Shown: positions 15,501-54,593 of the stretch, piece by piece
Layout of the letters: each line of letters begins with the position of its first letter
Numbering within the stretch: position 1 is the stretch's first letter
Source of the DNA: Bugula neritina
Lineage: Eukaryota > Animalia > Bryozoa
Reading direction: 5' to 3'
DNA length: 64,000 bases
Assembly: GCA_964035545.1 (NCBI GenBank)
Contig: OZ037771.1
Coordinates: forward strand, 4,993,190-5,057,189
Notes under the pieces: generated by a model
What the model saw: the letters and a program-made list of their open reading frames with translations, nothing else
The model's database searches: none
What the model was told of the DNA's origin: nothing
Translations under genes and position numbers: made by a program

Positions 15501-15734
15501 ACAAATGAAAGTCTAGCGGAAAACAGTACGGAAAAACCATCAGCAAATTGTGGGAGTTGTGAGCCCCACGTAAATATCAACTTTTACGAGGGCAGAGTAG
15601 TGGGCAGAATTAATGCACCCAGGGCAAAAAGTCCCAGTCACGTGCAGCAAACACGCTGCTCGGCCTTTTTCTACGCTGACATCACTAAAGGCAGACGTGT
15701 TCTCCAAGCTCATACACATATACTTGAACGGTGA
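9591..15734 (+). pseudogene. gag-pol of element B, many stops and frameshifts
   Basis: Fragments align with A and C pol; CCHC knuckle remnant 10393-10434; integrase interrupted at 13514-14270. Confidence 0.93.
13514..14270. mobile_element. Non-autonomous DNA transposon (757 bp), CMC/EnSpm-like
   Basis: Perfect 19-bp TIR CACAGGATAGTTAAGGGCA; 2-bp TSD TC; AT-rich insert absent from the homologous integrase of A and C. Confidence 0.9.
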
Positions 15735-15736
15735 GT

Positions 15737-16885: not shown

Positions 16886-17040
16886 GAATAGAACTGTGTC
16901 TTCTATCCTGCCCTAAGTAACATTCCGATCTGTGTGACGTTCCCCGTCAGTGGCGCCTCTCTTCTGTGTGACCTATCTCGTCCCCCCCAAGACAATCTGA
17001 TGACTAGTAAGCGGTACAGGAGTATAATCGTATGCACATG

Positions 17041-19617
17041 CACAGTTGGTTTAAGGTCATACTTTTCATTTTCTGGCTCTTTGCCAGGTGCTTTATGTTC
17101 TATATGAACAATGTTCCGCTGATAGCTCGAACAGGTTGAATGTCACAGGAACAAAAAAAATATAAAAAGATAAAGAAACTTATGTTCTCCAATATACTTT
17201 TTTATTTTTTTCAAAAGCCAATTCATGTTTAAGTTATAGCTTGTTGAAAAACATAGTCCCCCTTCCACATTCTTTTCAATTTATACGCTCCTGACTTGTT
17301 ATTGCGTCTCAATATGCCTTGTATTTGAGTGCTTGTTAGTCTCGCTTCACTAACTTTGCCTATACTTCACAAGTGCCAGTGCTGCTGGCTCAAAAGCTAA
17401 ATGTTATAAACTGTCAGCTAAAACCCAATCTTGTATTCCTAGGTTGGTTGGCCTAAATAAAACAATAGTCAAATCATGATTTCATGTTTTAAAAATTTAC
17501 TCTATTCTAACCTGCTGCCTAGCTAGTTCTATTTTTGATGTATAATTACAAAATTTGTGATACATTTTTTTGGCAACCATGTAATTTATAAAATGCAGTA
17601 ATGGTACTTATAATATTATATTATTATCATTATAATATATTATATAGTATTATGTGTGTTTTTATTATCCTGCATAATATCTAATTTATTATTGTTGTTG
17701 TGCAAACGAGTGCAATTAACCTAGTTTTCAAAATGTACCTCTAAATTATCAGAATATCAGTTTAGATATTTTCATGCTTTGTAAGGTAAACCTAAAAAAA
17801 GAGGCTGTATTCCCAAAGTAAAGGGTGTTGAACTATGAACTATATTAGATTAGCCACTCTGCTACCAAGTGCATCAGTATAATATTATATAAATAGCTCT
17901 GATGCTTTGTCTCCGGTGGCTGGCTGCGATATGATAACTTGGCCAACTTCCAAGAGTTTAAAATTGGCGCAATTATTCAAGAGGTTACATACTGCACAGA
18001 GCTAGCAGTGATAGTAACCTTGCTATTGGCAGTACTTATTACAACTGCCAGCATATAAGCTGCATTGTAGAATGCCGTTGGGGCAGGCTAGTAAAACCAA
18101 ATTCTGCTCTCTAATATACCTTAGACAAAATGCAGCAACATAATTTTTAGTTTCAAATTACATTTGCCACCCTTACATGAGCTGTGGGCTTCATAAAGAT
18201 TCATATGATTAGAGATTTATGCTATAGGCCCTATCTGTGCTAGTGTATGATGAAAATAACACACCATTGTCAAAGTTAACTTCAAGTATGTTGTTTTCCA
18301 GAAACTCAGTAATGTCCATTTATCTCTCGCATACAAATACTTATGTAATACCATACAGTTTAAGTTTTATTTTAGAGCACATCTGCAAACTCTACAATAA
18401 GAGCTTGCTTTACCAGTCTATTTCAGACCTGTTTTTGTAGCTAGTAATACGCAAGCTACTTATTTTTAAACTTTTGGGTTATTTGTTCAAAACCATTAGC
18501 TTTGCTAGTAACCCGAGACTATTGCAACAGTTGACTGCTATCAACATGAATTGACAGCCTAATAATTATAACCCTTTTGCGCGCGAAATATTTATGTAAT
18601 GATAGTTACTCATATAGTGCGCGTCTTATTAACGATGACTGCGTGGTCTAGAGGTTAGAGGCGTCAGCGAGGAGTTAGTTGGTTATGGTTCAACCCTGTT
18701 TTGTCGCAATTTTTTTTGTGTCAACTTATGCAAATCCTACGCATGTATAATAAATATGGCTATAATTGTAAAGTTTTTTTTAACTTTTGTTCAACAGTAA
18801 GACAACATACATGCATAATAATTAGATACTGAACACTGGACTAAACCTTAAATTGATCTTATAGAATACAATGTACTTAAAATAATCATATGTGAATTAG
18901 AGAAACTGAAAGTACACCTGCTGCTCTATAGACAGACCTTTACTGACAAGACTGCAAAGTGAAGTGATTTAGCTGAAATTAACTCTGCCAAACAAACAAA
19001 GAATTATGTTGTGCTGAGGCATTTTCAATATATTATTGTAACATAGTGAGATGATTCAGCTAAGTGCTAATGTAAAACAGGGAACATTATATTGGCAGAA
19101 ATCCAATATACTGCCAATTTGTGCGAGAGGGTACTATATGTTATTGTGATAGCGCAGAGCGGCAAACGTACTAGGAATGTTATAATTAGTCACAGGAGCG
19201 TAGCTAGAACCACCATATGAAGAATTTAGAAAATTGCAGTGAAACTTGCAAAATGGTGTATGTTTTTACCAAATTGTGAAGAGCATAAACAGAATTTCAA
19301 AAATCAAAGAAAGTATATTAAAGAAAACATATCAAGGAATGTCAAGTTTAACTTTTATACTTTATAAAATGAATCCCCTGTGCTACAGCAGTGGAACATG
19401 GAGGGTGTAAAATTTTACTTATTATGCAACAACTTTCTCAAAAAAAATTTTATTGAAAAATTAAAAAAGTATATGAAAGAGGAATGCAAGAGCTATCTTT
19501 TCATGTAAAATTTGTTAATGTGAGACAAAAACTGTTCGAGCTATCCCCTGGAAACCGTTTATATATAACATAAAGCAGTGCCTGAATCTGGAAAGTAATG
19601 ACCTTAAACCAACTGTG
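17041..19617. mobile_element. Non-autonomous DNA transposon (about 2.6 kb), CMC/EnSpm-like
   Basis: 20-bp TIR CACAGTTGGTTTAAGGTCAT with imperfect extension to about 90 bp; 2-bp TSD TG; accounts for the oversized 3' region of B. Confidence 0.88.
18637..18698 (+). other. tRNA-like (Pol III A/B box) remnant, possible SINE head
   Basis: TGGTCTAGAGGTTAG (A-box-like) and GGTTCAACCC (B-box-like) at tRNA-like spacing; no complete cloverleaf. Confidence 0.35.
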
Positions 19618-20850
19618 TGGTGTAAATATAGACAATTGCCCACACGGTTCTTTTACATATACATATATCTGTCTTAGATCTGTGGATGTTCTTTATATAT
19701 ATATATGTATATATACAAATTTTGGATCAAATATTTTGCGAGTTTTATTCTATTATATTTTTCTTATGTGTGTATCAAATGTTTTTTTTGTGTAGTACGC
19801 TTCTCCTCCACTATAAATTTTAGCAGGAAGTAGGCTCCCTGCTGGAGGGGGCGGCGTAGTGGCTAGTGAAGCGTACTGATCGTACACGTGCATAATAGCC
19901 AATAATGTTGAAGCACGTGACTACCCCCTGCGGAGCAGAATGCTTCTGGAGGATGATATAGTTAGTTAGTTAGGAGTAGTGCGATGATCGAGATAGTGGA
20001 TTAAAATAGACTGTAAACGCATTGTGAACGTTGGATGTATCTTTCTGTTTTATTTGTATATATATAATTAAATATAGTTCTTTTATCACGTTATCTTCTG
20101 AGTAATCCTTGAAACCATCAACCAAACAAGAGCATAGTTGCACACACAGAATTCACCCTAACTATTATAATTGACAATTATAACAATATTCCTAGTGCAG
20201 AAATTTTGACTCAGGATTGATGGTAACTGCTGCTAGAATTATATGCTTACTAATAAGTAGTAGCCAAAAAGGTTTTAATTGTAGCTAATATACTATCTTT
20301 AGGAGGCAAAAGGTAATTATGTGCTAGCAAACATAATTTTATTATTATATTTATAACTTCAATTTACCTGCAGTTTAAACCAAACTATATAGGCCTAGTC
20401 AATATTGCAGAACAATACCAATAATGTCATTCAAAACATTGAATGCTGGAGTAATTTATAACAGGTGCACTATTTTCTTGAAAATATGTAACACTGGTAT
20501 TGTTGCATATTGCATATATAAAATGTTGTCTTGTCATCAGAATCGGACAATTTTGTTTATATTGACTCAGTTCCTAAAAAAGTCCTTCTATCTAAATATT
20601 AGAGGACCTGTCAACGCCTGCCAACTTTTAAAAAGACTACATTCGTCACCAAACCTGTTGATGATATGCTGAATAAGCTTTGTCTTTGTTTGTAAAGGTT
20701 TATACTTTATACTATGTTATTCGTGTTATTAATAATAGTCAGTTTGTGCTTTTAGATTGATCCAGAGTGGACCTTTAATATCTTGAGCAATAAACTATCT
20801 TAAACTCTTTGACCGGTCTCTGAATCTATAAAGCAAACATAGCATAAACA

Positions 20851-20867
20851 TGGTGCCCCGAGTGAGG
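20851..20867 (+). promoter_or_regulatory. Primer-binding site, elongator tRNA-Met type (element D)
   Basis: TGGTGCCCCGAGTGAGG, about one mismatch from the complement of the elongator tRNA-Met 3' end. Confidence 0.7.
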
Positions 20868-20960
20868 ACTTGAAGAAACTAAAAGTAAAAGTGTTTGCTG
20901 GAAAGAGAGACAACAAACAATACAACTAAATCAAAAACAACAAAAAATCACAATATCAAG

Positions 20961-23900
20961 ATGAGTATCAGTGTTGACTTTTTAGCCCCCAAGCCTATTC
21001 AAGATGGCTCTGACTTGTCCAACCAGTGGACGAGATTTAAAGAAAAATTTGAGCTATTCCTCACAGCAGCTGAGAAAGAAAATTCTAATGATAAAGTCAA
21101 AGTAGCCATTATGTTAAGATGCATAGGCCCAAGAGGCAACGACATATTCAAAACATTTACTTTCTCAGATGGTAAATCAAAAGAAGTCTATGCTGATGTT
21201 GTGGAGAAGTTTGATGCTTTTTGTCAACGAGGCACTAATAAAGTAGTAAAAAGACATCAACTGTTATCAACCAAGCAGAATACCATGAACATTGATGAAT
21301 ATGTTACTTCGCTTCACAAAATCGCTCGAGAGTGTCAACTGGACACAATGTATGACGATTTCATGCTTCAAGCTTTACTCCTGGGCATCAACGATGCCCA
21401 ACTAAGAAGGAAGCTATTTGATGATGCCAGCGGGGATACTGGCTTAGGACTAGAAGAAGCTATAAAGAAATGTCGTATTGCTGAGAATTCAAGGAATGAC
21501 ATGGCTGCAATCCAGTCTGAAGAATCAGTGCAGTTCATCGGTTCCAGAAAGAAACCTAATAAGCCAAGCAAAGATGATGATGATAATGCAGTAAGGTCCA
21601 CTCGAACAGGAAACTTCTCAAAAGGAAGTTGTGGCAACTGTGGGCAGTCTCACCCTCCCAGAAAGTGTCCTGCATACGGTCACCAGTGACATAACTGCAA
21701 AAAGTATAACCATTGGAAATCTCAATGTCGCTCAAAAAAGCAAGTAAACATGGTAGAAAAAGACAGTGATGGCTCAAGTGAATTGTTGTTGAGCGTACAG
21801 GTAGTCAGAAAGAACAAAAAGTTGATGACAACTATAAGAGCCAGTGTGAATGATAGTCACAAACCGACACAGTTTCAGATTGACACAGGAGCATCCTGTA
21901 ACATTCTCGATCACAAAGATTTTGTTGATCTCGGTAAGCCAAAGCTTGACAACAACCAGACAAGGCTAAAGCAGTTGGATGGTTCTATCACTCGAGCATT
22001 AGGAGGATGCGAACTGGAAGTAGCTGGAGAGAAGCTGTATTTTCTGGTGCACAAGACACGAAATCACAGCCTTCTATCTGGTGAGGCCGCTCTTCAGCTC
22101 GGCTTGATAACCATCAAAGAGGAGTGGGTTAACCTAGTAAGCAATGCCAGCCTAGATGACATTCTCGGAAGCTACCCAGAGGTTTTTGAAGGTATTGGAT
22201 ATTTGCCTGGGGAATACCATATTGAAATAGATGATAGGGCTATCCCAAGACAAAGTCACAACAGAAAGACGCCTCTCTCGATGGTAGCTGATCTCAAACA
22301 AAAATTGCAGTCATACACCCAGAAAGGTATCTTAAGTCCAGTAGACTATCCAACAGCTTGGATAAACAATCATGTGGCTGTGAGAAAACCCAATGGCACA
22401 CTGAGAGTATGTTTAGACTCAAGCAACCTAAACCAAGTGATTCAAAGAAATCATTTTCCAATGCCGACGCTGGACGATGTGCTTAGCGAGCTGGATGGTG
22501 CTCGAGTATTCTCATTGTGTGATGCCAAGGACGGCTTTTTGCAGATAAAACTCAGCAAAAAGTCCAGTGATTTAACTACGTTCTGGACGCCATTTGGCAA
22601 ATACAAATGGCTGAGGATGCCTTTTGGGTTGTCCTCAAGTCCTGAAGAGTTCCAGAGGAGACTCTCAGATGCACTTAGCGGTCTCGACGGAGTAACTGTA
22701 GTAGCAGACGACATCCTAATTTATGGGAAAGGAGCTACTCAAGCGGAAGCAGTGCAAGACCATAACCAAAAGCTCGAAAAACTTTTAGCAAGAGCACGTA
22801 GGGTTAATCTCAAGCTAAACAAAGAAAAATGTAAGTTTCTTCTAGAAGAGCTACCTTATATTGGTCATTTGATAACAAAAGATGGAGTGAAGCCCGATCC
22901 TAATAAAATCCGAGCCATAACGGACATGAAGCCCCCTGTCAACAGTGAAGAAATACAGAGGTTTCTTGGTCATGTGAACTGCCTATCAAAGTTCATACCT
23001 CACTGCTCTGCTGAATGTGAACCACTAAGACGGCTGATTGGTGTAAGCAAGAAAGAGTTTGTCTGGGGCCAAGATCAAAAGAGAGCGTTTGAGGAGAATA
23101 AAAAACTCATCACGAAAACTTCTTCACTCAAATACTTCAACATGAACCAACCAGTAGTTGTACAGACTGATGCAAGTCTAGAAGGGCTCGGAGCTGTACT
23201 TTGACAAGAGGGGCAACCAGTAAGCTATGGCTCTAGAAGTTTGACAGATAGTGAGAAAAACTATGCACCTATTGAACTAGAACTTCTGGCCATCGTCTAT
23301 GGGATGCAGAAATACGATCAGTACGTTTTTGGAAACCCATATGTAACTGTACACACGGATCACCACTCTTTATAGAAACAATATTTAAGAAGCCTCCGAA
23401 CAAAGCGCCTAAACGCCTGCAATCAATGCTATTGGCTCTGCAAAGATACCAAATTAAAGTGCACTACAAACCTGGTTCTGAACAAGTTACAGCAGACATG
23501 CTGTCTCGCGCTCCTGTTGGTGAACCCCAGAACAATACATCAGAAGAACAGATTTTCACAGTTATTCAATTGAAGTCATTTATGTCTGACCTAAGCGAAA
23601 CGGGTCTGAAGCAAGACCTGTCAGTGTCAGAAGTGACCTATAAACTGATCCAACAGCATACGGGTAATGATCCAGTAATGGTGCAGCTGCAATCTCTGAT
23701 AACCTCAGGATGGCCTAACAAATTATTTCAACTGCCAGAAGAGGTGAAGCCGTACTATTCATACAAAGATGAACTTGCAGTACTAGATGGGATTATTTAT
23801 AAAGGATCTAGACTGGTTGTGCCCATAGCTGCCAGAGGTGAAATACTCAACAAGCTTCACACTAGCCATCAAGGAACAGCTGCCACTATCAGAAGAGCTC

Positions 23901-24946
23901 GCAATGCGGTATTCTGGCCTCAAATGGCTGAGGACATTCGAATGAAAACTGACAAGTGTGTCACATGTGCAATGGATGCACCTTTACAACAGCATGAGTC
24001 TCTGCAAAACCATGACATACCAGACTTACCTTGGAGTAAAGTAGGCATGGACATACTAACCTATAAGCATAAGGATTATTTGATGCTGGTAGATTATTAC
24101 TCTGACTTCTTTGAATATGAACCTTTATCTGATACACAATCTAGAGCAGTAATCAAGGCTTGCAAGAAAACTTTCGCAAGGTATGGGATCCCTCACCAGC
24201 TTCAATCAGACAATGGACCACAATTCACCTCGGCCGACTTTGCTCGATTTAGCACTGAATGGGGTTTCAGCCATACAACCTCATCTCCGGGACATCAGCA
24301 GTCGAATGGGAAGGCAGAAGTAGCAGTTAAAATAATCAAAGGGCTGATGAAGAGAGCAGAAGACCCATATTTGGCTCTGCTAGAGTATCGAAATACCCCG
24401 ACTGCAGGGATGACCTCATCACCAGCTCAGAAGATGTTTGGGCATTCCACGAGGTCTATTCTTCCTACAGGTGACATGCCAAAGAACAATGTCTTACAGC
24501 AAAAAGCTAACAAGAGAAAAGTGGTACAGAGCAGCTACAATAAATCAGCTAAAGATTTGACAAAGTTGGCTATTGGCTCGCCAGTGCTGCTGAGAGATTT
24601 TGTGTCACAAAAGACTAGATGGCAGCAGGGCAGAGTGGTTGAACAGCTGTCGGACCGATCATACCTTGTCTCAAACAAAGACACAGACATGGCTGTGAGG
24701 CGAAACAGGGCCAATTTGCGCCCTCTGAGTGATGTGGGAGCTAGTCAGCCATTGACTACAGTTGAAATACCAACAAACGCCAATGACCCAGTATCCAGTC
24801 ATTCTGTTCCAGACGCACAGATTCAATCAGCCGCAACAGCAATTCCTACAGAAGTGAATACAAACCCTGGTCCAGCCCCAGTTAGATGGCAACGATCAAG
24901 ACAAACAAAAACCCCAGCTAAATATGAACAATACGAACTATACTAG
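20961..24946 (+). pseudogene. Single gag-pol ORF of element D with two stops and a frameshift
   Basis: Double Zn knuckle (stop 21687-21689 inside the second); IDTGA protease; VADD RT; TDAS RNase H; HHCC and SDNGPQF integrase. Confidence 0.93.
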
Positions 24947-25513
24947 ATAATTATACTTAATCTGAACGAAGGCAATCGGACAATAAACTCTTGAAAAAAA
25001 AATCATTTAAATAGCCCGAACCCAGAAAATAATATAATGTACTTTAAATTAACAAGGGAGACAATCTTGTAATAACATGCTAATCTGCTATAGACTATTA
25101 ATAACAAAATCGTATTACTTGTTCATGTATCAATTCTTAATTTTTTGTTAAGTTTTTTTCATTTGTTTGTTCAACTGTGGTGGCTCGTAGAGCTACCAGC
25201 AACACAATACGCAAGGTTGCGTATTGACCCGGAACGATGTACTAGCCAATTAGCTAAGCTGCTTATGAGTAATAGTAGCAGCTTCGCGCTACTAGCTCAG
25301 TTGAGGATAGTGCTGTAAATTAAATAGACGTGCGTATTATTAACTGTTGTATATTAGATTTTATTATGTATTCTTGTATTCAAATATAACGATATCTACT
25401 CGACTTATCTCGGTGAAGTTCCTCTAATAATAAATGACTCTCTTGGTTGCACATCGACCCTAAATCTGAAAATCAGAACAGTGGTGGCAGCGGTGGGATA
25501 GTGTTCATCAAAG

Positions 25514-28500
25514 ATGGAGACTGAAAATGCTAGAATGCAACCACCCCCAGTAGAAGGTGAACGTAGAAATGATGTTAACCCTGTAAATCGTGAGGGAGAA
25601 GAAGCTTATAGATATTGCTTGAAAGCTCCCACCTTTACTGGGTCAGAAGATGTCGAACAGTTTATACAAGAATTTAGAGAGGTAATGGAGATTTCTCAAT
25701 GGTCGCACAGAGTGGCCCTTATCCAATTGCGGAGAGCGTTGACGGAGCAAGCCAAGCCGTACGGAGTGGGAACGGACGTAAACGGGATACTGGCTGCGCT
25801 GCGGGCCCGTTTTGGCATCTCCGAAATAGACGCTAGGACCAAGCTACAGAGATTGTGCCGCACCCCGCGGACCTCGCTGCAAGAACATGCCGCGACGGTG
25901 AAGAAGCTGGCACAGATTGCGTATAGTGACCTACCAGCGCAACACCAAGAGCGTTACACATACGACGCCTTTGTCCAGTCACTAAACGACCTGGGCCTAC
26001 ACCATCAACTTCGAGCTAAAGGGATAACCAGAATAGAGGATGCCCTGAAGGCTGGAGAAGCTTACCTGTTGGCTACCCAAATGCATCGAGCACAACGGAA
26101 CCCACCAGCAGTTGGAGTCAGTGCTGCCAGGGCTATGACAGGCCCCGAAGCCCCCCCGCTGGAAGCCGAAGTGGACCGTATGGTAGAGATGCTGGGACAA
26201 CTGGTAACAATTCTGGCCGGCGCTGGCCCCGGTCAGGCCCTGCGGGTGCCTCCAACACCTGTGGGGCAGGGCTGGAGTAGTGCTGGTCAGGACCATAGAC
26301 AGAAAGGACGACCCCAATACCAGGGGGCGTTAAACTGTCACGGCCCGCAGACGATCTCCCTCGGGCCGCAACTGAAGGAGTCTGGTGGGACACGCCGTCG
26401 TCTGTCCGTACGGACACGACGGAACACTCCTCCCGAGTGGCAGGTACCACGCAGGACTAGTAGGCCCGCACAACGGCCAAGTACCTTCTCCCTGCCACTC
26501 GCCAATTGGTTCCACCGGTTACCTCGGGAAGGGGAGCCCGCCACTGAAATGGAGCCGGAAGGCCCAGTGGAGAGCCCCAAACCCCGCCGGCACCAACCTC
26601 GCCGCCGGAAACCCCGTAAACCACGGGTGAAACCCCCGCCGTCCTACCAATCTAGGACAGCACATGCGGGGGGAGGGGGGGTGAAAGTACAACCACATGG
26701 AGAGAGCTATTTCCTACCCGGAAAGGTGGCCGGCAACGCCGTCACTTTCCTGCTCGACTCCGGTTGTACTACCAACCTTCTCAGTCGTAGAGTCTTTGAG
26801 GCACTGCCCCGCCGGGACAGGGATAGAGTACGACCGTATACGGGGGAGCATGGCACCCTGGCAGACGGGTCATGTATTCCCTTCTACGGTATTATCGAGC
26901 TCCCTGGGCGTGTCCGAGACCAGGCTGTACAGGAGACTTTTGTCATAAGCCAACTGGAGGAAGATGCTATCCTCGGAATGCCCTTCTTGAAGCAACACCA
27001 GTGCCGAATAGACTTCAGCAAGTCGGTGGTGCTGATGGGCGGGCGAGAACTCGCCTGTGTGGATAAGTTTGGGCGTCCTCTGGTGGACGGTGTTCAGGTA
27101 GTCCAAAACTGCACCGTGCCCGGACGCTCCAGAGCTACTATCCACTGCCGAGTGAACAGCAACCGGATAGCCAGGCTCGGGGTCGTTGAAGGCGCGCACG
27201 AAAGGATCCAACTCGCTAGTAGTTTAAACCGACTAACTGAGCGAGGGGAGGTCTTAGTGCAGTGTGTCAACCCCTTTACCGAGCCCATTGAGCTCCCAGC
27301 TGGGTCAATGCTGGGCCGGTTCCACTCCGTCCAGGAAGAGGACGTGGGCCCGTCGCTGGGTGACGCGACGGAGACACTCCCTCGACACCCTACTCAGGGG
27401 CGAGGGGCAGTCCCAACACATCTCCGGGAGTTATATGAAACAGCCTGTGGCGGCTGCGCGAGCAACAAGGAACGCCAAGCGATGGCGAAGTTGCTACGCG
27501 ACTACGGTGATGTGTTCAGCAGCGGAGATCATGACATGGGGCTGACGGGAGTGGTCAGACACGAAATACCGCTGACTGCAGGGACAGTCCCTGTCCGGCA
27601 ACCCAGGCTGGGGCCGGAAAAAGAAAAGGAGGTTAGCCGACAAGTACGGGTACTTCTGGACCGCGGCCTCATAGAGCCCGCCCATAGTGCGTGGAGCTCA
27701 CGAGTCGTACTGGTCCGGAAGAAAGACGGCAGTTGGCGGTTCTGTGTGGATTACCGCAAACTCAATAACGTAACCATACAGGACGCCTACCCTCTACCTC
27801 GTATTGACGAGTCATTGGACGCCCTAGCCGGCAGCAAGTACTTCAGTACGTTAGACTTGCTAAGCGGCTATTGGCAGGTTCCTCTGAGTCCCGACGCCCA
27901 GGAGAAAGCGGCGTTTATTACACGGGACGGGTTGTGGAAGTGGAAGGTGCTGCCCTTCGGGTTAACCTCCGCTCCAGCCACCTTCCAGAGGCTGATGGAG
28001 CAAGTCCTTAGCGGGCTCCATTGGAAGACACTGCTGGTCTACCTTGATGATGTCATCGTGATCTCCCCAGACTTCGAGACACATGTCAGTCGTCTGCAGG
28101 AGGTTTTCGAGAGACTCCGAGGTGCCGGTCTTAAGCTCAAACCTTCCAAGTGCGCTCTATTGCAGCCGGAGGTCAAGTACCTGGAGCACGTTGTCGGTCG
28201 AAACGGCGTGGCAACGGATCCCGAAAAGGTATGGGCGGTAGAAGACTGGGTCACCCCCCAAGACTTGACCGGACTCCGGGCTTTCTTGGGGCTGGTAGGG
28301 TATTACAGGCAATACATACCGGACTTTGCGGACATAGCCCAGCCGTTAAACCGGCTCACCGCAAAGGGAGTGACGTGGCAGTGGACCCCAGTCGAACAAG
28401 GAGCGTTCGACCGCCTCAAGGACTGCCTGCTAACGGCGCCCATCTTGGCCTACCCAGACCCCACTCTGGAGTACATCCTCGACACGGACGCCAGTGACCA

Positions 28501-30727
28501 AAATGTTGGCGCTGTGCTGTCTCAAGTGCAGGAAGGCCGAGAGGTAGTGGTAGCCTACTACAGCAAGTCTCTCTCACCCGCTGAACGAAATTACTGCACT
28601 ACCCGCAAGGAGCTGCTGGCAGTAATCAAGTCAGTGAAGCACTTCAGACCATACTTATACGGCAGGAAGTTCCGGCTGCGTACGGATCATGCCTCGCTGA
28701 TCTGGTTGTGCAAGAGAGCAGAGCCCTCCAGTCAGGTCGCCCGGTGGCTCGAAATCCTAGCTGAATTATCCTACCGGATCGAACATCGACCGGGCAGAAG
28801 ACACAGCAATGCGGATGGTTTGAGCCGCCGACCTGATGGAGGTTGCAAACAGTGTCTCAACATCGAGAGGAGGGACGGAGGTCCCCCGCGATGTGAGTTA
28901 GAGACGCTGGCTCGCCATGGAGCACCGTTTGACTAGGACCAGGGTCAACTCAGACAGGAGGTTGACGAGTCCCCGGAGGTTGTACAAAACCTCCGCGCCA
29001 ACCCTGTACTGGCCGAAAATGTTCGAGAGCTGAAGAAGCTCCAGGAAGAGCTACCTGGAGTAGTGGCAGACATATATCGGGCCAAAAAGGAAGGGCGACG
29101 ACCCAGCGAGGAACGCATAAGACAGGGATGCGCCAAGTTCCGGCTATACTGTCAGCGTTGGGACTCGCTGCGGATCGGGCAGGATGGGTTACTAACCATC
29201 TCTCTAGCCGCCAGCGGCAGACACCCAGAGAGGAAGAGGGTAGTCTGCCCCACTGCCATCCGCCGTGAGTTGATTTGGGATACTCACAAACAGGCCCACG
29301 CAGGGGTCAAGAGAGTGATGTCCAAATTACGACTCCGGTGGTATTGGCCACAAATGGAGCGTGACGTCCGGCTAAGAGTCAAACAGTGTGAGATCTGCCA
29401 GGCCAGTAAGCATAGCCGTCCCCCTGGTGAAGCAGGACGGCGGAGGTTATATGCTGGAAGGCCCTGGCAAGTAGTCGCTGTAGACCTGGTCGGACCCATG
29501 CCCCTGACCCCCAGAGGCAATAGTTGGATTTTAGTACTGACCGACCACTTTACTAGGTGGGCGGATGCTCTGGCTATCCCAGATGCGTCAGCCCCAACAG
29601 TGGCCAGGGCACTAGACCAACATGTATTCTGTTATTTTGGTCTCCCCGAACAGATACACTCTGATCAAGGCGCTCAGTTCCAGTCCCAACTGATGAGCGA
29701 CCTTTGCCACCTCTGGGGAGTAAATCAGAGCCGGACCACCCCCTACCACCCTCAAGGTAACGGGGTGGTGGAGCGCAACAACCGGATGCTAGGTGATGCG
29801 CTCCGGAGTCTCCTCCTTGGACGAGGCCAAGAGGAATGGGATACGGTGTTGCCGCAAGTCATGCGTGCATACCGTAGCACCCCACACACCAGTACTGGTG
29901 AGACCCCAAACCTCTTGATGCTCGGGAGAGAGACTCGTGTCCCTGACCATCTTACCTACCACGTTCCAGAGCAAGACAACTCGGTTCACGAGTATGCCAG
30001 TGAACTAGTGGAACGGATGAAGGCCGTACACGATATACTGCGCGAACAGCAATGGAAGGTGCGGCACGAAGATTCCGATGAACCACCCCTCTACCAAACG
30101 GGAGATAAGGTGTGGATGGTCAATTACTGTAGGCGTCGCGGACAGGCGGCTAAGTTACAGCCTAAGTTCGTGGGACCCTACGTGATCATCGAGGCTATGC
30201 CCAACCATACGTACAAGATTGAGCGCTCAGGACAGGTGTCTATCCAGAATGAGTCTCGCTTGAAACCGTATTGGGCTAGTCCCGACGCAGTGGGAGAAGC
30301 CCCCCCGTTGTTGGAGCCCAGGAGGCAGACAACAACTCGCGGGCGACGGCGGCATGGACCTGAATACGAAGTGGTCATACCGCGGGAAGAAAACTTGGTG
30401 AGAGAGGAGCGACAGCTTTTGCCAGCAGAAGCGTGTCCGCCACCGCCAAGTCTAATTCCATCACTTCCAGAAACCGAGCCGGTTCCGGAAGTGCAAACCC
30501 CCACGGAGGGAGGGGCTCCATCCGGAGAACAAGAAGAGGTGACCGCTAACGGTGAAGTAGAGATGCCATTAGAGGCCCCTACAAATAAACCGGCGAGCGT
30601 GTCACCCCCCCTAGAACGGGGACAGCGTACGAGGAAACCCCCACCATATTTAAAAGACTTTGTATGTGACTGCATTAGAAGCGGCACGCATGAAAGTCTA
30701 GGGGAAAACCGTACGATAAAATGTTAG
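25514..30727 (+). pseudogene. gag-pol polyprotein of C, one frame with one in-frame TAG (28934-28936)
   Basis: LLDSG, YLDD, DTDAS, HHCC, DDE and GPY motifs; the stop corresponds to a Trp in A. Confidence 0.95.
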
Positions 30728-30910
30728 AGTTGTGAACCCCACGCAAATATCAACTTTTGCGAGGGCGGAATAGTGGGAGGAATTAATGCGCGTAAAGCAA
30801 ATAGTTCCGACTTCGTGCCTCAGAAACAATGCTCAGCCTTTTCTTATGCTGACATCGCCAGAGGCAGACGTATATCACAACCAGCTCCAATCTTACCAAG
30901 AACGTTGAGT

Positions 30911-32040
30911 ATGGACATTAATACCGAGTTCACAGGTAAGCCAGTATAAGTCTTGTATTCCTATCCATGGAAACGGGCTCTATGCCAGTAAATTCTGAAC
31001 TAATTCAACAGGTTGAATCAGAATTACTGGGAACCACGTTTCACGTGAATGACGATGAAGACACTGTAATGGCCGACGGTCTGTTAGACCTGGAGCTAGA
31101 CACTGTTCTTGGTCAGTCCACACATGATTCACTGGTTCCTCGAGTGCATTCTAAAAGTTGTGACTCTCAGGCTAGTAACAGTCGACCGTCACTAGAATTA
31201 TGTTGTAAAGATCCACCGCGATCTAACAATAATTCTACTTTTGTAGACACACTCGCGCCCGTCTCTCCGGGCATGCCTTCTCTAGAGATGGCATGGGACC
31301 CAGAGCCGGCCCCACCAACTTCCACAACCGGACAACTGCCACCCCAGTTGGAAGCAACCTCCAACTGGACTACCCCTGCCACAGAGAAAGAGATTAAGAC
31401 TCATAGAGGAGATGACAGTAACCGTGAATGCCGCCTATGTCAGCAGCGGTTTACAACCCATCGCAGGCTGAGAGTCCACTTGCCGCAGCATTACATCACA
31501 ACGTTCTGCCCCTGCGGAGAATATAGTTATAATTGTGATTATCTACTGCGTCACCAACGCACTATGCAGTGCTTTCAAGGACACGTCTATGAAGTAGACA
31601 AAGCATCATATCCCGCATTCCTTAACGCCATCAGACCCCTCATCACTGACTCGGCTCGGCTGTCTCGCCTCGAGCAAGGCTTTCCCTCCCCTCGACCCAT
31701 CATCTCTGAAACTATGGATAAGCCTACAAAATCAGCTAACTCCCCACCTCTCAGTCCTATACGTCAACCGCATACACTTCCCCGTGTCGTACTACAGAGG
31801 GTAGACACGAAGGCGTATACACTCCCTCCCCCACTTCCATCTTCAGAATGAAAAAGGCACAGACAGCAGACCTTCTCTCGTTCATCCCCTCTGGCCCGCA
31901 ACTTACGTGAAGTAGAAGCTAGGGCACGCGACCTGGAGCAAGAAGTGTATAGACTGGCCCCGCGCGTGCATGCGGCATCCAGTGAACTCAAGTATCTACA
32001 GGAGTCTATTAAACGCATGAGGCGGGCGGCCCATGATTAA
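30911..32040 (+). CDS. ORF3 of element C: acidic, zinc-finger, basic and coiled-coil protein with one premature TGA at 31849-31851
   Basis: Micro-exon 30911-30935; donor GT 30936; acceptors end at 30988 and 31246; frame continues past the stop to ...LQESIKRMRRAAHD*, matching A. Confidence 0.82.
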
Positions 32041-32678
32041 CATGAGTCCATCTCCAACTCCATACTACTCTTCCCCCCCTACCTCTCTGTGGCATTCCCT
32101 CCCGTTACGGTGGCACGTACTCTACATGTAAATAGGACTTTCTTTTACATACTTGCATCATTCATTGTGCATATATTTTTTATATATATACCTGTACCTC
32201 TAATCAGTTGGCTCTTGTATATACTTTTGTATCGTTCTCTCTCTGCCCACTGATGTATAAGTTTTTTTATATGAATTATATTTTTTATCAGAAAGAGGGC
32301 TTTCTGCTGGAGGGGACAGTGTGGTGGCTCGTAGAGCTACCAGCAACACAATACGCAAGGTTGCGTATTGACCCGGAACGATGTACTAGCCAATTAGCTA
32401 AGCTGCTTATGAGTAATAGTAGCAGCTTCGCGCTACTAGCTCAGTTGAGGATAGTGCTGTAAATTAAATAGACGTGCGTATTATTAACTGTTGTATATTA
32501 GATTTTATTATGTATTCTTGTATTCAAATATAACGATATCTACTCGACTTATCTCGGTGAAGTTCCTCTAATTATAAATGACTCTCTTGGTTGCACATCG
32601 ACCCTAAATCTGAAAATCATAACACAACATTGTCAAAGATTTGTAAAGGGGATGTTGATGATATGCTGAATAAGCTTT

Positions 32679-33297
32679 ACTTGACTTACTTGACTTACTT
32701 GAAGATGCAATCACGTTAGACCACTATATTAGTGTAAGCGACGTGCCTCGTTTGGTGAACAGAATTATTAAATGTAGTTAATACTTTTATCGCATAAGTG
32801 CAGTTCTGTTTTAAGACTTTGGTGCCAGTACAGGGCCTTATGAGTCCTGTCTGTGAGCAGCATTTGATGTTATTTTCATATCACGTATTGTTCTGGGTAG
32901 GAAGCTGGCATGAAATAGTGAGGTGTTAGTTCTAAAAGTGGTGGGCATGCCATTTGACTGGGACCTGGTGGTAGCTGATGTAGTGGGCTGATCGATGAGG
33001 TGTTCATACGACTTTGAGAGTGAAGGATGATATTCCTCTTTGGCCAGGATCCGCATCAAGAGACTAAGTCGTAGGTCTTTGCGCCTGTTTTGCAGGGGGG
33101 TTAATCCAAGCCTAGATCTTGCCTCATCTGAGCCAACCCTGCCTTTAATACCTGCCACAAATCTCACAGCCTGCTCTTGTACTTGCTCAATATCTACTAC
33201 AGCCTTCTTGGAGCTGGGGTCCCACACAGCAGCAGCATATTCTAGGTGAGGACGACACAGGGCTTTGTATGCTATTAACTTCGCCTTTTCTGGTGCC
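32679..33297 (-). mobile_element. 5'-truncated LINE (CR1/L2-group-like 3' end) inside the 3' LTR of D
   Basis: RPHLEYAAAVWDP...IEQVQ...SFLPRTIRD C-terminus; (AAGTCAAGT)n tail; LTR sequence resumes on both sides. Confidence 0.85.
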
Positions 33298-33729
33298 CTT
33301 TGTTTGTAAAGGTTTATACTTTATACTATGTTATTCGTGTTATTTTTATTAGTCAGTTTGTGCTTTTAGATCTATCCAGAGTGGACCTTTAATATCTTGA
33401 GCAATAAACAATCTTAAATTCTTTGACCGGTCTATGAATCTATAAAGCAAACATAGCATAAACAAAACCCATTTGAGCCGTCGCTAACCTGTTTCCTGTT
33501 ATTGTAAGCATTTTCCGGCAGTCCTTGAAATCAGGTCAGTAAGTAAAAAGAGGAAAGGCTTGCATTTTGGATGAGGAAGCTACTTCAGCTGTCCCACCGC
33601 TATACTAACCACAATTCAAACCAAAATGTTACTACAAAACTGAAGAACTAACAAGATTTGTCAAGTGTAAATGTAAGTGTCATACATTGCAGTTTTATCT
33701 CGAAGAAAAGTATTGACTTTCAGTTTCAC

Positions 33730-35474: not shown

Positions 35475-36035
35475 GTCCGTATACATTATTAGTTAGTCTG
35501 GAGAATAGTAAAATACACACCTGAATACAGTGTTCTTTAAATATACCTGAATAGGTTTCAATTACGTCTTCCAACTTGAAAGATAACATGAAGACTTTGT
35601 TACCCCCCTTTAGGTTTCTTCTCTGAACTGTTATAATGTGGTATTTCTGTATACACCGTAACTTTCTGTAACTTTTATCTGCATGTAGTTTAATGGAGCT
35701 GTCTACTTACCAAAGCTGTTGAGAAACTTCTAGGTTACATGAGAACCTAGGTTACTTCTCATTCTCACCATTTCTTATACATGCTAATATTTTCTTCATA
35801 TTAACAGTTTCTGTTATAAAGTGGGTGTGAAATCTTAAATAGAAGCATCACCGTTGTCTAATAGATAAGTTACTCATATGTTTTCAGTCTACCTGATATA
35901 AAGAGTTGAAGAAAGTCTCAGTTTTATTCCTATTGAATCTTCATGTTGATGACTCAATAATTAGTATGTTTGTCTCTTTGAATATAAGAATATATTAACT
36001 GCTGGATTACATTTTCAATTATTATATAAGTAATA

Positions 36036-39000
36036 GAGGGTTTTCAGACATCCCTCTAAGGGGATTTGTATTTTAAAGTTGTCTCCCCCTACAGGGATTG
36101 GGGGCAGTCTCGATGATATATAGAAAACCCATAAAATAAGTAGAGATGTAAGGTTTGAGTGAAGACTACTACTAGTATAAGTTTCATTTTTTCTGAGATT
36201 AATATTTTGGCATAAGTACACATATGAGCAGTTTTAGAAATTTTTTAAAAAATTTTGTTAATGATAAATAGCACAAAAACAAAACTTCAAAGCATATTTG
36301 TGGTTTTGGTTATTGAGCAAATCTGAAGCTGGCAGCTGTCATTATTATTTGCTTTGCTGACTGTAACCAGTCTGTTTAGAGCTGCTAACCTTTCAACTCT
36401 TAGAACAATAATAACATGCTTGTACACTATATAGCTGCACTAGTAAACTCTGTCTTACTGAACTCCAAATGCTCCAAATTATGGGTTGGAACACATGCCT
36501 GTACGTTTAAGAAGGCACTGGTTCATTTGTATTAACATGTTCACGTACTATACTATACTATGAAAATAACTCCTAAAAGTTTACCATCTGAAAATATTAC
36601 ACTAACTGAAGATAAGAAAATAGCAAACAGTTTTAATAAATACTTTACTTCCATAGGAACAACGTTATCAAAGAAATTTACTGACGACAATTTTGATTTT
36701 ACAGCTCGGAAGTCAGATAAAAAACTTGATGAACAGTTTAGCTTTACAAATATTGAAAGCACAGTCATTGAAAGCTTACTTAAAGATGTAAACCCAGCCA
36801 AAGCTGCAGAATTAGATTTAGCTCCCACCAACCTAATAAAAATATCTGCATCTCATCTTTTAAAGCCTTTAGCTTACATTATAAACACAATTATCAATGA
36901 TGGCGCTTTTCCAAATGAACTAAAAAAAGCTAAAGTTGTTCCTCTACACAAAAAGGCATAGCTACTGATGTAAGTAATTACCGCCCAATCTCTATATTAC
37001 CTGCTTTCAGTAAGATAGCTGAAAAGATTTTAAATAAGCAAATAGTAGATTTTCTAAAAAGCAAAAATTATTTAACTGATAAGCAGTACGGCTTTAGACG
37101 AAATAAAAACACAAATATTGCCTTAATTAATCTAACAACTAAGGTTTTAAATGCCATGAACAATGGTAATTCTGTAGCTGAAATTTTCCTCGATTTTAGT
37201 AAAGCCTTTGACACAATAAATCATGAAATCTTATTAGCTAAATTAAAAATGCTCCACTTTTCAAGTCACAGTGTGAAGTTAATTAAAAATTATCTGTCCA
37301 ATCGTCAACAGTCTACTATTATTAACAACACATATTCTGACTTTATTCATATCACATGTGGAGTACTACAAGGATCCATACTTGGTCCCACATTATTCCT
37401 AATTTATATAAATGATCTTCCAGATGTAACTATGCATTTAGACCCTATATTATTTGCCGACGATACGAACCTCTTCTTTAAATCAAAAAATCTATTAAAC
37501 AATATGGACATCATAAACTGTGAATTAAAGAAAATTGAAACTTGGTGCAATAAAAATAAATTAACTGTAAACATGAGTAAAACAAACTATATGATAATCA
37601 AAACAGCGCAAAATAAACAATATTTAAATTGCTTTGCCTTAGAAATGTTCAACAAAAAATTAGTGGAGGTAAAATCAACCACCTTCTTAGGTATTATAAT
37701 AGATTCACATCTTTCTTGGCAACAACATTGCAGCAAACTTTGTCAAAACCTAAGGCCCTTAGTAGGCTTGATAAGTAAATGTTCCCATCACCTACCTAAA
37801 AAAATTCTAATACAAATATATAACTCTTTTGTAAATTCTAAATCAACATATTGCCTAGAATCGTGGGGTAATGCAGCAAACATTTACTTTGAACCATTAC
37901 ATTTACTACAAAAAAAATACTGAAAATTATATATAAAAAGCATCACCTTTCCGCATCTAAACCACTGTTTCTTAGTTCTTCAATCATGCCTATTCACACT
38001 CTACACAAATTCAAACTAATACTGCTCTCACATAAACTTTACTATTCTCAACTAACACATCTCACACATAACTATCCCACAATATTTTCAGAGTTCAGCC
38101 TACAAACTCCTCCATCATCAACTGCTGCAGGTCAACGAAGAGTGAAATTCCAATGTTCATCGCTATGGAATAAATTGCCTAATTCTATTCGTGCTGTGGA
38201 AAGGGAGGCTGGTTTCAAACTTGCCCTGAGAGACCACCTAATGACAAATTTCCAGATAAAAAAATAATACTCTTTGAGTTGCTAAAAAACTTTCCAAAAA
38301 CCTAAACAAAAATCTTTTATAACTGTCAACCATTCATGGTTCGGTGCCTCGACTAGCTACAGTGCTATTGCGCCATAGGCCCTGTCATTTTGTTTATTTT
38401 TTCTCAATTAATTTTTTCCCCGACTACGACAAAATGAAAACAAACAAACTAAGTACCCTATTATCTAATATTTCTATATATAAAAAAAATTATTATGAAT
38501 ACAAGAATATGTATTATAAAATAAATAGATTAAATTTGTAATTTCAAACATCTTATCTAAAAATGCCAAACACTGTATAGCTATATATATGTTTTATAAG
38601 CATTTGTTTACATGGCATGTCTGCAAGTCAATAAAAATATTTAGAGAATAATAAAAAGAAGCATATACATTTCAGAACAGTTTCTGTTGAATTGTGGGAC
38701 ATTTCCAAAATATTCATCTCAGAAACTATTCTGAAATTTATATGCTTCTTTTTACTGTTCTCTAAATATTTTCATTGACTTGCAGACATGCCATGTAAAC
38801 AAATGCTTATAAAACATAAATATAGCTATACAGTGTTTGGCATTTTTAGATAAGATGTTGTTTGAATTTACAAATTTAATCTATCTATTTTAATACATAT
38901 CTTTATATTTATAATGATTTTTTTGATATATAGAAATTTAGATAGTAGGGTGGCTTAGTTATTTTCATAGTATAGGTGTGTAAGTACGTGAACATGTTGA

Positions 39001-39495
39001 TACAAATGAACCAGTGCCTTCTTAAACGTACAGGCATGTGTTCCAACCCATAATTTGGAGCATTTGAAGTTCAGTAAGACAGAGCCCACTAGTGCAGCTA
39101 TATAGTGTACAAGCATGTTATTATTGTCTAAGAGTTGAAAGGTTAGCAGCTCTAAACAGACTGGTTACAGTCAGCAAAGCAAATAATAATGACAGCTGCC
39201 AGCTTCAGATTTGCTCAATAACCAAAACCACAAATATGCTTTGAAGTTTTGTTTTTGTGCCATATATCATTAACAAAATTTTTTAAAAAATTTCTGAAAC
39301 TGCTCATATGTGTACTTATGCCAAAATATTAATCTCAGAAAAAATGAAACTTACACTAGTAGTAGTCTTCACTCAAACCTTACATTTATACTTATTTTAT
39401 GGGCCTTCTATATATCATCGAGACTGCCCCCAATCCCTGTAGGGGGAGACAACTTTAAAATACAAATTCCCCTAGAGGGATGTCTGAAACCCCTT
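36036..39495. mobile_element. Foldback (long-TIR) non-autonomous DNA element interrupted by a LINE
   Basis: 36036-36571 plus 38451-38686 is the reverse complement of 38720-39495 (arms about 775 bp, spacer about 33 bp). Confidence 0.85.
36572..38446 (+). mobile_element. 5'-truncated LINE (L2/Crack/Daphne-like RT), degenerate
   Basis: NYRPIS, FLDFSKAFDTINH, QGSILGP and FADD motifs; (AAAC)n tail; possible AACT duplication. Confidence 0.88.
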
Positions 39496-39612
39496 TATTC
39501 AACAGTAAATTGATGTAATTTATACTCTTAGAATATTAACATAGATAAATGTACTAGAAAGCAGGTGATATTATATTTACTCTATAATTGCGTACGTATA
39601 TACTAAAAATAG

Positions 39613-40958: not shown

Positions 40959-41006
<48 letters not shown>
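40959..41006. repeat. (TA)n microsatellite, left flank of the PLE
   Basis: Pure TA run. Confidence 0.95.
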
Positions 41007-41012
<6 letters not shown>

Positions 41013-41040
41013 GAAATAAAATGAGATTTGATTAATATAA

Positions 41041-41103
41041 TGGCATTTATTACTAGTAGTTTCGTACACAAGAACGATGTGCACTCGTCAGATAAATTAG
41101 CCA
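41041..41103 (-). ncRNA. Minimal type I hammerhead ribozyme in the PLE 3' repeat
   Basis: Reverse complement of the 43275-43337 copy; core intact. Confidence 0.85.
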
Positions 41104-43274
41104 CTATGATTGTTTACAACTATAAATAATGTAATATGTAAATATACACAGATTAAAGCTAGAAGATCAAAATATAACAAAAAGGTAGCATTGTAATTAG
41201 TTGGCTATGTTACAGCATTCTTGAGTAGAAATTTACTACTATGTCTGCATATGGATAAAAAGTCATAGCGCTTATTGAGGGAAGACAACTGTGGCTTATA
41301 AAGAATGAAAAATTTTTCCCATGAGCATAGCTGACAGATTTTAGTGTTGTTGTTGTATGGTTAAGTTTTTCTGAGAATTTTCCAGGATATGGTAAAATCC
41401 AGACCTTTGTCTTTTAAGGTCCAGATGTGTTTACTCAACTCAGTTTGCATGCACTTGGTTGGGTGTCTGAAAGAAGCAAGGTGGTTGTAGTATCTTGCCT
41501 TGAATGCAGTGGAGGAAATTCCTACATATGTTTCAGCAGTATCTTTTGATGGGACGAATACTTTGGCCTGGTACACAATGTTTGGGGTGGTGCATTCTCC
41601 TGGGAGCGGGCATGTCTTTACATTTCTACAGTTACAGCCTGCCTGTGATATAGGGGTGGTGTTGCATTTAGTAACACTTCTGTTGTGAGCAGTGATGGTC
41701 TGCTCTAAATTTGGGCAGCAACTGTAGCTGAGTTTGAGTGTGTTTTTATTAAATATTTTGTGCAGTGGGTGTTTGGTGTTGAATATATCTTTTATCAGCT
41801 TGAGGTATATGGAGCCGATTTTCGTCTTTACATTGCGGCTATAAGGTGGATTGTACCAGATGACTTGTCTTTGTCTGATGGGTTTGATGCTTGTATTGGT
41901 GTTGTCAGTATAGTCTTTGTATTTGAGTTGGTAGTCATATCCGCTTTTAGCCAAAGCATCTTGATATAGTGGGATGGCATTGTTGAAGATAGTTTCATTG
42001 GTAGATATGTCACAAAGTCTGCGGTTTATAGATTCTGGTATGTTATTCAGTATGCTGGGAGGATGGTTAGAGTCTTTGTGTACATACAGAGGGATGTTGT
42101 TGGGCTTGGAGTACGGTGTATGATGTTTCTTGACCAGATCTAGGGTGGTGTCTAAATAGTCAGTTGTTTTGATATTAACATCTATGGTGATCTTTAGACC
42201 GTGTGACTGGAATAATATGCAAAGATCTTTTTTCAGTCTTTCAGCTAGTTGTGGTTTAAGATCTGTTACACCTAGCCCATCGTCTCTATATAGTCCAATG
42301 TTAGCTTTGAACTTTTTTGAGATTTTACTTAACAAAAATAATCCTACTAATTCACATGTTTCAGCACCATCATGTGAGCCCATAGTGACGTCAAACAAAT
42401 TATCTGATTGTCTTTTACCCCAAAATGAGTTGTCATGCACCAATATGGATTTTTTTGTGTGCAATATGATATTCCGTTCGTGGTTGCTGACTGTAGTATG
42501 CAAGTTGGCAAAGTCGAGGGCATCAGATAGTAGCTTTGGCGATATAGATGGATAAAATTCCACAATATCGAACACGATAAAAGAGTGCCTGTTTGTGGTG
42601 GTCAAATTGTCAAACCAATGTAAAACTGCAGATGTGCTTTTCCACTGATTTAGGCCAAGTTTGCTGTTTATCGATGTATTAATTCTGTCAAGTAGTTGTT
42701 TACTCACCCTACCTATCTCTGGTTTGGTGGGGTTAATAAGGCGGCAGGTGGGGTTAGTTATGTAGTTAGCCTTATGATCCTTGATAGTAATGAAGGCGGG
42801 TTTCTTAGCTGTTATAGTAATTCTGTCATCAAGTTCCAATTGTTCAGCCATGGCTTTGTCCTCACTAGTGATGTTGGAGACTTTGTCATTTGATATTTTC
42901 TTATAGGTTTTAGTGATATTGTTAGTTAAGAGTCTGTCATACGATTCTTTGTCCATTTTGTAGAAATTGTTGCTTTTGTCTGCAGGCACTATTATATTGT
43001 CGCTCATGGTTATTTTATGCTTGATGTCGGAGGATAGCTTGTCTTGAAAGGTATTGTGGACATGTCTAAACTTAACAGATCGGATCATGTCAGCTAATCC
43101 TTGCTCGAAACTTTGCATAGCTGTGATCTGTGGTGGGGACTTTTTAGACCTACTCAAGAATGCTGTAACATAGCCAACTAATTACAATGCTACCTTTTTG
43201 TTATATTCTGATCTTCTAGCTTTAATCTGTGTATATTTACATATTACATTATTTATAGTTGTAAACAATCATAG

Positions 43275-43337
43275 TGGCTAATTTATCTGACGAGTGCACA
43301 TCGTTCTTGTGTACGAAACTACTAGTAATAAATGCCA
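43275..43337 (+). ncRNA. Minimal type I hammerhead ribozyme, inverted copy
   Basis: Stem I ATTTAT/ATAAAT plus TGGC/GCCA; CTGACGA; stem II GTGCACA/TGTGTAC; GAAA; short stem III CTA-C-TAG; GTA cleavage triplet. Confidence 0.88.
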
Positions 43338-43432
43338 TTATATTAATCAAATCTCATTTTATTTCTTCTAATGTTTACGCTCTAGATTTATTTCTATAGA
43401 GCACTCTAGTAACGTTTTATAAACACTCATTT

Positions 43433-46151: not shown

Positions 46152-46289
46152 TCTCTCTCAACTCACACATCTACACACATTAGTTGTGTCTCGTAATAAG
46201 TTAGGAACATTACCTGAGGTGATACCAAAGATGAAGTCACTTACAGAGTTACATCTACAGTTCTGTGACTTACATACATTACCAGACAG
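46152..46289 (+). CDS. LRR exon 1 (138 nt, two 23-aa LRRs)
   Basis: AG|...|GTGAG, phase 2-2; LSQLTHLHTLVVSRNKLGTLPEVIPKMKSLTELHLQFCDLHTLPD. Confidence 0.92.
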
Positions 46290-47323: not shown

Positions 47324-47461
47324 TCTCTCTCAACTCACACATCTACACAAATTAGATGTGTCTGGTAATAAGTTAGGAACATTACCTGAGGTGATACCAA
47401 AGATGGAGTCACTTACAGAGTTACATCTAAAGGACTGTGACTTACATACATTACCAGATAG
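47324..47461 (+). CDS. LRR exon 2
   Basis: Same structure; KLDVSGN and ELHLKDC. Confidence 0.92.
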
Positions 47462-53925: not shown

Positions 53926-53987
53926 TAAACACAAATGTGTTCGTGTCCATAAAAAGTAGACACAAATTAAACGTAAAGTAGACACAA

Positions 53988-54590: not shown

Positions 54591-54593
54591 TAA

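Follow-up and report, generated by a model that had tools for sequence, protein, structure and literature searches.

We propose that the third open reading frame (ORF3) of three related Ty3/gypsy LTR elements in Bugula neritina, here called A, B and C, is a spliced regulatory gene whose long form is likely a transactivator and whose short form is likely its antagonist, a reading of the sequence that we put forward tentatively. In this model ORF3 would be expressed by splicing between donors and acceptors, two of each and all in phase 1, with the ATG exon brought near an RNA 5′ end by an internal promoter or by a second splice. A predicted hairpin would damp the strong distal acceptor, so that the long form and unspliced RNA persist. 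The acidic-hydrophobic patch would serve as an activation domain through which the long form activates transcription of the element, and the short form, which would keep the fingers and the coiled coil, would be dominant negative against the long form. The components of the model carry different weight: from the sequence signals, splicing to the distal acceptor is very probable and use of the proximal acceptor is favoured to a modest degree, while the existence of two ORF3 forms, by whatever route, is probable.

The window, meaning the whole stretch of 64,000 nucleotides analysed, is crowded with mobile elements, among which A, B and C share LTRs, a common primer binding site (PBS) and 4-bp target duplications, as expected of Ty3/gypsy LTR retrotransposons, with the PR-RT-RH-IN order found by Pfam in C and A. 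Each carries ORF3, which gives no Pfam match, between pol and the 3′ LTR.

~977-8376, minus strand: element A, with LTRs, PBS and target duplication
~9196-20185, plus strand: element B, with LTRs, PBS and target duplication
25176-32624, plus strand: element C, with LTRs, PBS and target duplication
25176-25480, plus strand: 5′ LTR of C, 99.3% identical to its 3′ LTR, with the 4-bp target duplication CAAC
32320-32624, plus strand: 3′ LTR of C
25482-25499, plus strand: PBS of C, which we take to be of the tRNA-Leu type
25502-30727, plus strand: gag-pol of C (PR, RT, RH, IN), interrupted by an in-frame stop codon at 28934-28936

Every copy in the window is broken somewhere in ORF3 or pol; in A a frameshift directly follows the distal acceptor, and ORF3 of C holds an in-frame stop at 31849-31851. 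The pol of B is interrupted at ~13514-14278 by an AT-rich insert and its 3′ end at 17041-19617 by an element with terminal inverted repeats. C itself is inserted in the 3′ end of a different gypsy element at 20684-33464 (gag with CCHC, RT, IN), whose 3′ LTR region is divided by a further insertion. Elsewhere in the window, 540-bp inverted repeats at 36032-39499 flank a LINE-like reverse transcriptase at 36934-37923, and 99.6% identical inverted repeats at 41006-43372 flank a 606-aa minus-strand ORF that has no Pfam match and by eye resembles a Penelope-type reverse transcriptase. Tandem repeats with a period of ~1.16 kb occupy 45950-50140. A Polinton/Maverick-like gene cluster lies at 53473-62691, with a double jelly-roll domain (PF21738) at 54936-55787, a chromo domain and fragments that by eye resemble DNA polymerase B, and a long inverted repeat accompanies it (57057-58282 / 62802-64000).

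A sequence-only reading of this DNA had proposed that each element carries a 25-nt exon of the form ATG-nnn-nnn-AAT-ACC-GAG-TTC-nnA-G followed by GTAAGC, and that a near and a far acceptor follow it. The exon and both acceptors were recovered in all three elements, where the proximal CAG ends introns of 52, 53 and 53 nt and the distal TAG ends introns of 316, 316 and 311 nt in A, B and C.

2698-2722, minus strand: ATG exon of A, with donor at 2697 and acceptors ending at 2646 (proximal) and 2382 (distal)
15737-15761, plus strand: ATG exon of B, with donor at 15762 and acceptors ending at 15814 (proximal) and 16077 (distal)
30911-30935, plus strand: ATG exon of C, 25 nt, the second of two predicted ORF3 first exons
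30936-30941, plus strand: donor GTAAGC of C; without splicing, the frame of the ATG has 12 codons before a stop at 30947-30949
30967-30969, plus strand: internal in-frame ATG (Met) of C within the short intron; A and B do not have ATG here
30986-30988, plus strand: proximal acceptor CAG of C, weak
31244-31246, plus strand: distal acceptor TAG of C, strong

The donor of the ATG exon is canonical and conserved, being the sole GTRAG common to A, B and C over 6667 gap-free aligned columns (58.6% identical), and by U1 complementarity it is first among the 377 GT sites of A and joint second in both B (of 440) and C (of 425). The start codon can be followed into a sister group: of 23 further proteins that reach the proximal site, 6 run unspliced in one frame from the ATG-exon peptide to the acidic patch. 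A spacing of 19 residues is common to five of the six, and Met stands at the ATG position in five. As the ATG of the sister group reads unspliced in frame into the acidic region, its role as the start of ORF3, and translation of the acidic patch, are supported. Three of these six proteins have Asp at the residue where the donor requires Gly and have thus lost the donor. In A, B and C the corresponding stretch lacks 1-2 nt relative to the sisters and its frame ends after 12 codons, so that the ATG would join ORF3 only via splicing. Within the exon, a core of 12 nt (30920-30931) is identical in A, B and C, third positions included, and codons 2-3 vary freely; the core may be a cis-element, and a search for a long-range pairing partner yielded none common to the copies.

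The acceptors were followed into relatives at the level of protein, as no related DNA was obtained: searches of metagenome, viral and genome contigs together with pattern scans gave a single locus, which is unrelated to the element. Bases were therefore inferred from residues, a phase-1 acceptor appearing as an NYA codon followed by a codon with G first. The distal acceptor has a pyrimidine tract and a branch site, and by a simple pyrimidine score it ranks 4 of 258, 4 of 303 and 2 of 256 YAG sites in the respective elements. The branch-like CTA(A/G)C noted earlier is present in all copies as a motif, but in B it has no branch A. From 72 ORF3 relatives, 52 of the 53 that reach the distal site are YAG-compatible, with exchange among Leu, Ser, Val and Ile; the Leu/Ser exchange matches TAG/CAG. 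A small ORF in the +1 frame ending at the distal TAG was considered and rejected, since in 13 of the 53 relatives the residue is Ser, which implies CAG and hence no stop.

The proximal acceptor is weaker by sequence context. It has no pyrimidine tract, ranks 87, 141 and 133 among the 256-303 YAG sites by the same score, is one of 73 YAGs common to A, B and C, and is preceded by upstream AGs in A and B; an intron of 52-53 nt is also short, which counts against the splice model. Among relatives, compatible residues stand at the proximal site in all 33 of the 72 that reach it (P/A/S/T/L then V/D/A) and in 22 of 23 among 139 further proteins, 55 of 56 in total, and of 37 variable G-first columns this alone shows no change of the first base. 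The pattern is not unique, as 7 of 287 adjacent residue pairs fit it at ≥95%, and it is kept in sisters, three of six of which have no donor GT, so that it may belong to the gag donor described below or to something else. Both acceptors are phase 1, as had been claimed, but the long form of B is out of frame with ORF3: the distance between the acceptors is 258 nt in C and 264 in A, and the 263 nt of B leave its long form frameshifted. The skipped part had been described as exactly the acidic region, which holds for its first 40 residues (11 D/E, 0 K/R) and fails for its last 45 (4 D/E, 5 K/R). In C a low folding score (z -3.0), the second in this region, lies over the proximal acceptor at 30960-31040.

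A different account has no two-acceptor switch at all. The distal acceptor alone would be used, and ribosomes that reinitiate at, or scan leakily to, the internal ATG at 30967 on unspliced RNA would make the acidic form, a splice-free path. In the sister families reading would run directly into the acidic patch from the first ATG. The low ranks of the proximal acceptor (87-141) fit this account, as do the start of gene calls at the internal Met in 31 of 72 relatives, a conserved M-E-x-x-L within the supposed intron and a sister group that requires no short intron. Set against it are the YAG-compatible residues kept in 55 of 56 proteins despite V/D/A exchange at the proximal site, the absence of the internal ATG from A and B, and the fact that the count of 31 is partly an artefact of the gene caller. 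We regard this account as fairly unlikely.

It is very unlikely that ORF3 is unspliced and that its splice signals arose by chance or as a side effect of conserved coding or RNA structure. The 73 shared YAGs and the donor lost in three of six sister proteins would agree with it, and no junction was seen, in RNA contigs that miss the junction sites. Against it stand the unique conserved GTRAG, the top-ranked distal acceptor, four sites all in phase 1 and an ATG frame that, unspliced, stops after 12 codons in A, B and C. As for the RNA, run X1 gave 22 contigs on C that represent a small share of the element and do not reach the junction sites, a single one lying inside 30860-31300 and covering only 31270-31300. 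Run X2, a run of unrecorded type, gave 195 contigs on C with no joint, and may be the window's own source and so not independent; 0 of its 29 listed variants fall at the ATG, the donor or either acceptor.

A second donor, which was absent from the earlier reading of the window, is a phase-1 AG/GTRA placed 31-43 nt after the gag ATG in A (8012), B (9622) and C (25557), within an otherwise unalignable stretch.

25514-25556, plus strand: gag ATG to gag-leader donor of C, 43 coding nt, phase 1, the first of two predicted ORF3 first exons
25557-25562, plus strand: gag-leader donor of C, AG/GTRA in all three elements

At +5 the C copy does not follow the donor consensus, and 99.7% of the depth of run X2 disagrees with the window at this place, so the departure looks private to this copy. 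We took 120 related Gag proteins, of which 59 had no anchor and 8 were too short, leaving 53 usable N-termini; 50 of these cover the donor site, and 48 of the 50 have Gly, Ser or Arg (N/GT) at the donor, with Glu next in all 50. The first 10-15 codons of Gag could accordingly be spliced onto ORF3 as well, in an arrangement reminiscent of avian retroviruses, where the env donor lies a few codons into gag. It is also possible that the gag E-G-E motif is conserved for a role at the protein level instead. The ORF3 long form could instead come from the internal ATG at 30967 or from the gag-leader donor. A donor-like GGTGRG at 25492 was rejected as it belongs to the PBS. A possible acceptor upstream of the ATG exon, at 30867, was likewise set aside: its YAG is shared, but it ranks 143-220 and would give an exon of 66-68 nt, which is not frame-keeping. 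It is left open solely as a reinitiation route, because a frame led by gag would run into a stop in A and C, at the ATG or just short of it, though not in B. GC falls to 0.43 at 30650-31000, and no conserved core promoter motif was established upstream of the ATG exon.

A splice or a read-through could make ORF3 a C-terminal extension of integrase, in a Pol-ORF3 fusion that steers integration, and the earlier reading had kept a spliced fusion in play on the observation that pol and the ATG share a frame in A and C. This was confirmed, but stops part the ATG from pol (2902-2900, 2755-2753 and 2734-2732 in A; 30725-30727 in C), and the spacer is 27, 28 or 29 nt depending on the family. None of 8 related pol tails reads through the micro-exon in the ATG frame; four terminate, in a different frame, at the TAA within the donor, and four end earlier, some of these ends being possibly contig ends. 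On the other side, the donor-internal TAA at which those four tails end lies in the ORF3 frame in B and C, and two sister proteins (P0265 and P0300) have a single open frame that takes in the pol tail, the ATG exon and ORF3, so that ORF3 may derive from a pol extension. Stop read-through at the donor TAA was rejected, the frames differing between families. A functional Pol-ORF3 fusion is in our judgement extremely unlikely, and such a fusion is not the conserved route. Splicing from the ATG-exon donor to the distal acceptor is well supported by sequence and conservation. The pol tail itself carries a motif C-x-x-F-S-Y-A-D (30728-30870) that is kept in 7 of 8 relatives, with pol often stopping right after it, and it may be a protein motif or a promoter element.

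In two pairwise comparisons, pN/pS in the ORF3 frame is 0.28-0.35 over the acidic half (0.8-1.4 in the other frames) and 0.23-0.29 over the fingers. At 31110-31246, in the same comparisons, pN/pS is 1.0-1.7 and pS only 0.12-0.23, against a pS of 0.7-1.0 downstream. This is the stretch in which we predict a conserved RNA structure.

31160-31237, plus strand: predicted conserved double RNA hairpin of C (2468-2391 in A, 15991-16068 in B)

The same two hairpins are predicted in A, B and C (z -4.1, -3.5 and -3.9), and they occupy the two lowest of 37 folding windows in C. All 84 of 84 alignment cells are paired, with two compensatory pairs, but 59 of 500 shuffles score equally high, so that with three DNA copies the covariation is not significant. 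The first closing pair was deduced from two codons in 50 proteins, of which 36 have A-U, 13 have G-C and 1 has a mismatch. On a quick tree that excludes those columns it needs 3 changes, at least 2 of them forced by well-supported branches; the second closing pair is compatible in 49 of 53 proteins and shows no covariation. Run X2 has 10 variants in the hairpin, of which 6 fall at unpaired positions, 2 preserve a pair and 2 break one. An Rfam search with the hairpin gave nothing near threshold. The branch-like CTAAC of the distal acceptor, at 31223-31227, falls within the second stem, and the predicted hairpin lies within both long introns, which places structured RNA where an export system of the Rev, Rex or CERV kind would have it.

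The protein encoded by ORF3 has a layout of acidic, leucine-rich patch, disordered linker, two-finger folded domain, basic patch and coiled coil.

30991-31110, plus strand: acidic, leucine-rich patch of C, with NES-like spacing at 31069-31098
31429-31572, plus strand: C2H2 finger and C-x-C...H...C finger of C
31852-32040, plus strand: basic patch and coiled coil of ORF3, lost in C through the stop at 31849-31851

A structure model gave an overall pLDDT of 58, with 83-93 in the finger domain and a predicted C-terminal helix of 49 residues. The two fingers are found in 61 and 53 of 72 relatives and the basic cluster in 27 of 28, and C156, H169, H173, C179, C181 and R188 are invariant in 25 near and distant relatives. 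A profile of ORF3 collected 261 clusters at 50% identity with E up to 0.001, a widespread family without a Pfam model. In one distant relative the finger domain is duplicated (P0205), and another (P0323) also carries a retroelement protease but no reverse transcriptase. C2H2 matches to ORF3 fall under the Pfam cut-off, the fold search returned nothing at E<0.001 with C2H2 arrays as the best PDB entries at E>1, and an Atlas search gave C2H2-like proteins at 0.87-0.90, which are no more than a lead; these searches yielded no significant match, by fold or family, that would indicate DNA binding. A 19-residue window above 1.6, as for a transmembrane stretch, occurs in only 1 of 72 proteins, and ORF3 matched no env family or fold, as an errantivirus-like env would; with no membrane anchor, ORF3 is not env.

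The assignment of ORF3 as an activator rests on protein architecture: an acidic patch, a candidate DNA-binding module and a candidate NLS are all present, the module consisting of C2H2 matches below the Pfam cut-off and folds at E>1. Among 38 further relatives, 24 have an acidic-hydrophobic patch upstream of the fingers; for the downstream side the count is 8 of 26. Alternatively, ORF3 would be an RNA export factor like Rev or CERV, binding the hairpin on unspliced RNA, multimerizing through the coiled coil and using the leucine-rich segment as its export signal; the short form, without that signal, would then inhibit export. This alternative rests on the position of the hairpin and on the export-like motif. 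The hairpin is removed on distal splicing and retained in unspliced RNA, as the RRE is (PMC12789967, available portion), and with two good donors the export of unspliced RNA would be a real problem, one that Cer1 solves by CERV according to the available portion of PMC10309623. The likeness to CERV drawn here is one of description. Judged by what we take to be the NES consensus, the spacing M-x3-L-x2-L-x-L is matched by 32 of 43 close relatives at a single one of 269 windows. Yet the hairpin overlaps the branch site, so that damping of splicing alone explains it; NES-like patterns of two other classes lie near residue 280, outside the skipped part, in 29-30 of 45 proteins; and distant relatives keep the acidic-hydrophobic patch, the exact spacing not being evident by eye. 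We consider the export reading somewhat unlikely and retain the transactivator as our working model.

LTR retrotransposons are mostly thought to need just gag and pol. The literature searched offered CERV of Cer1 as the only tested spliced regulator of an animal retrotransposon, and no description of ORF3 was found there, subscription papers, Repbase reports and supplements lying outside the search. As described in the available portion of PMC10309623, CERV is a spliced nuclear accessory protein of the C. elegans LTR retrotransposon Cer1, with 517 aa in five exons, three of them in common with gag; it has a zipper, an NLS, a candidate NES and a Cys finger, is required for export of unspliced RNA, and is there said to have no obvious homology outside nematodes. 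ORF3 resembles it as an LTR-retrotransposon accessory protein predicted from spliced mRNA that possibly shares a gag exon, and differs from it in lying between pol and the 3′ LTR, in its C2H2-type fingers, in its own ATG exon and in an intron-located hairpin. In the Tas/Bet system of foamy viruses (PMC12789967) the regulatory gene likewise lies close to the 3′ end and depends on a 5′ end in its vicinity, supplied in foamy viruses by an internal promoter. A self-encoded activator of the element's own promoters would be the best model for ORF3; foamy viruses are, however, retroviruses with env (PMC12789967), the ORF3 elements are env-less, and our fold and sequence searches found no homology of ORF3 to Tas.

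HIV Rev/RRE, HTLV Rex and MMTV Rem likewise combine a spliced regulator bearing a leucine-rich motif with a structured region in the unspliced RNA (PMC12789967, in part). Here the hairpin is ~78 nt, overlaps a branch site and has no Rfam match, and ORF3, unlike these regulators, has zinc fingers; no match to Rev, Rex or Rem was found in PDB sequences, PDB and viral folds or Pfam. The env third ORF of gypsy and the additional ORFs of plant elements share with ORF3 a place between pol and the 3′ LTR and the expression by splicing that is predicted for it (PMC7264820 and PMC2774666, accessible portions). The plant ORFs are proposed regulators of unassigned function in the part of PMC7264820 available, and additional genes occur in the Tat and fungal chromovirus clades according to the corresponding part of PMC2774666. 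ORF3 differs from them in having no transmembrane stretch, the architecture of a nuclear regulator, the sense strand and two donors with two acceptors.

In its fullest form our model would mean that an env-less animal LTR lineage independently evolved a circuit like that of complex retroviruses, in which a zinc-finger regulator in long and short forms, with two first exons, and a protein-bound pre-mRNA hairpin choose between activator, inhibitor and unspliced genome. We think it unlikely that every part of this holds. The combined frame of splice sites and RNA structure nevertheless predicts four exact junctions, in C at 30935/31247, 30935/30989, 25556/31247 and 25556/30989, which makes self-regulation by a retrotransposon testable with one RNA data set. 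If true, control of the Tas or Rev kind would have arisen in parallel outside the retroviruses.
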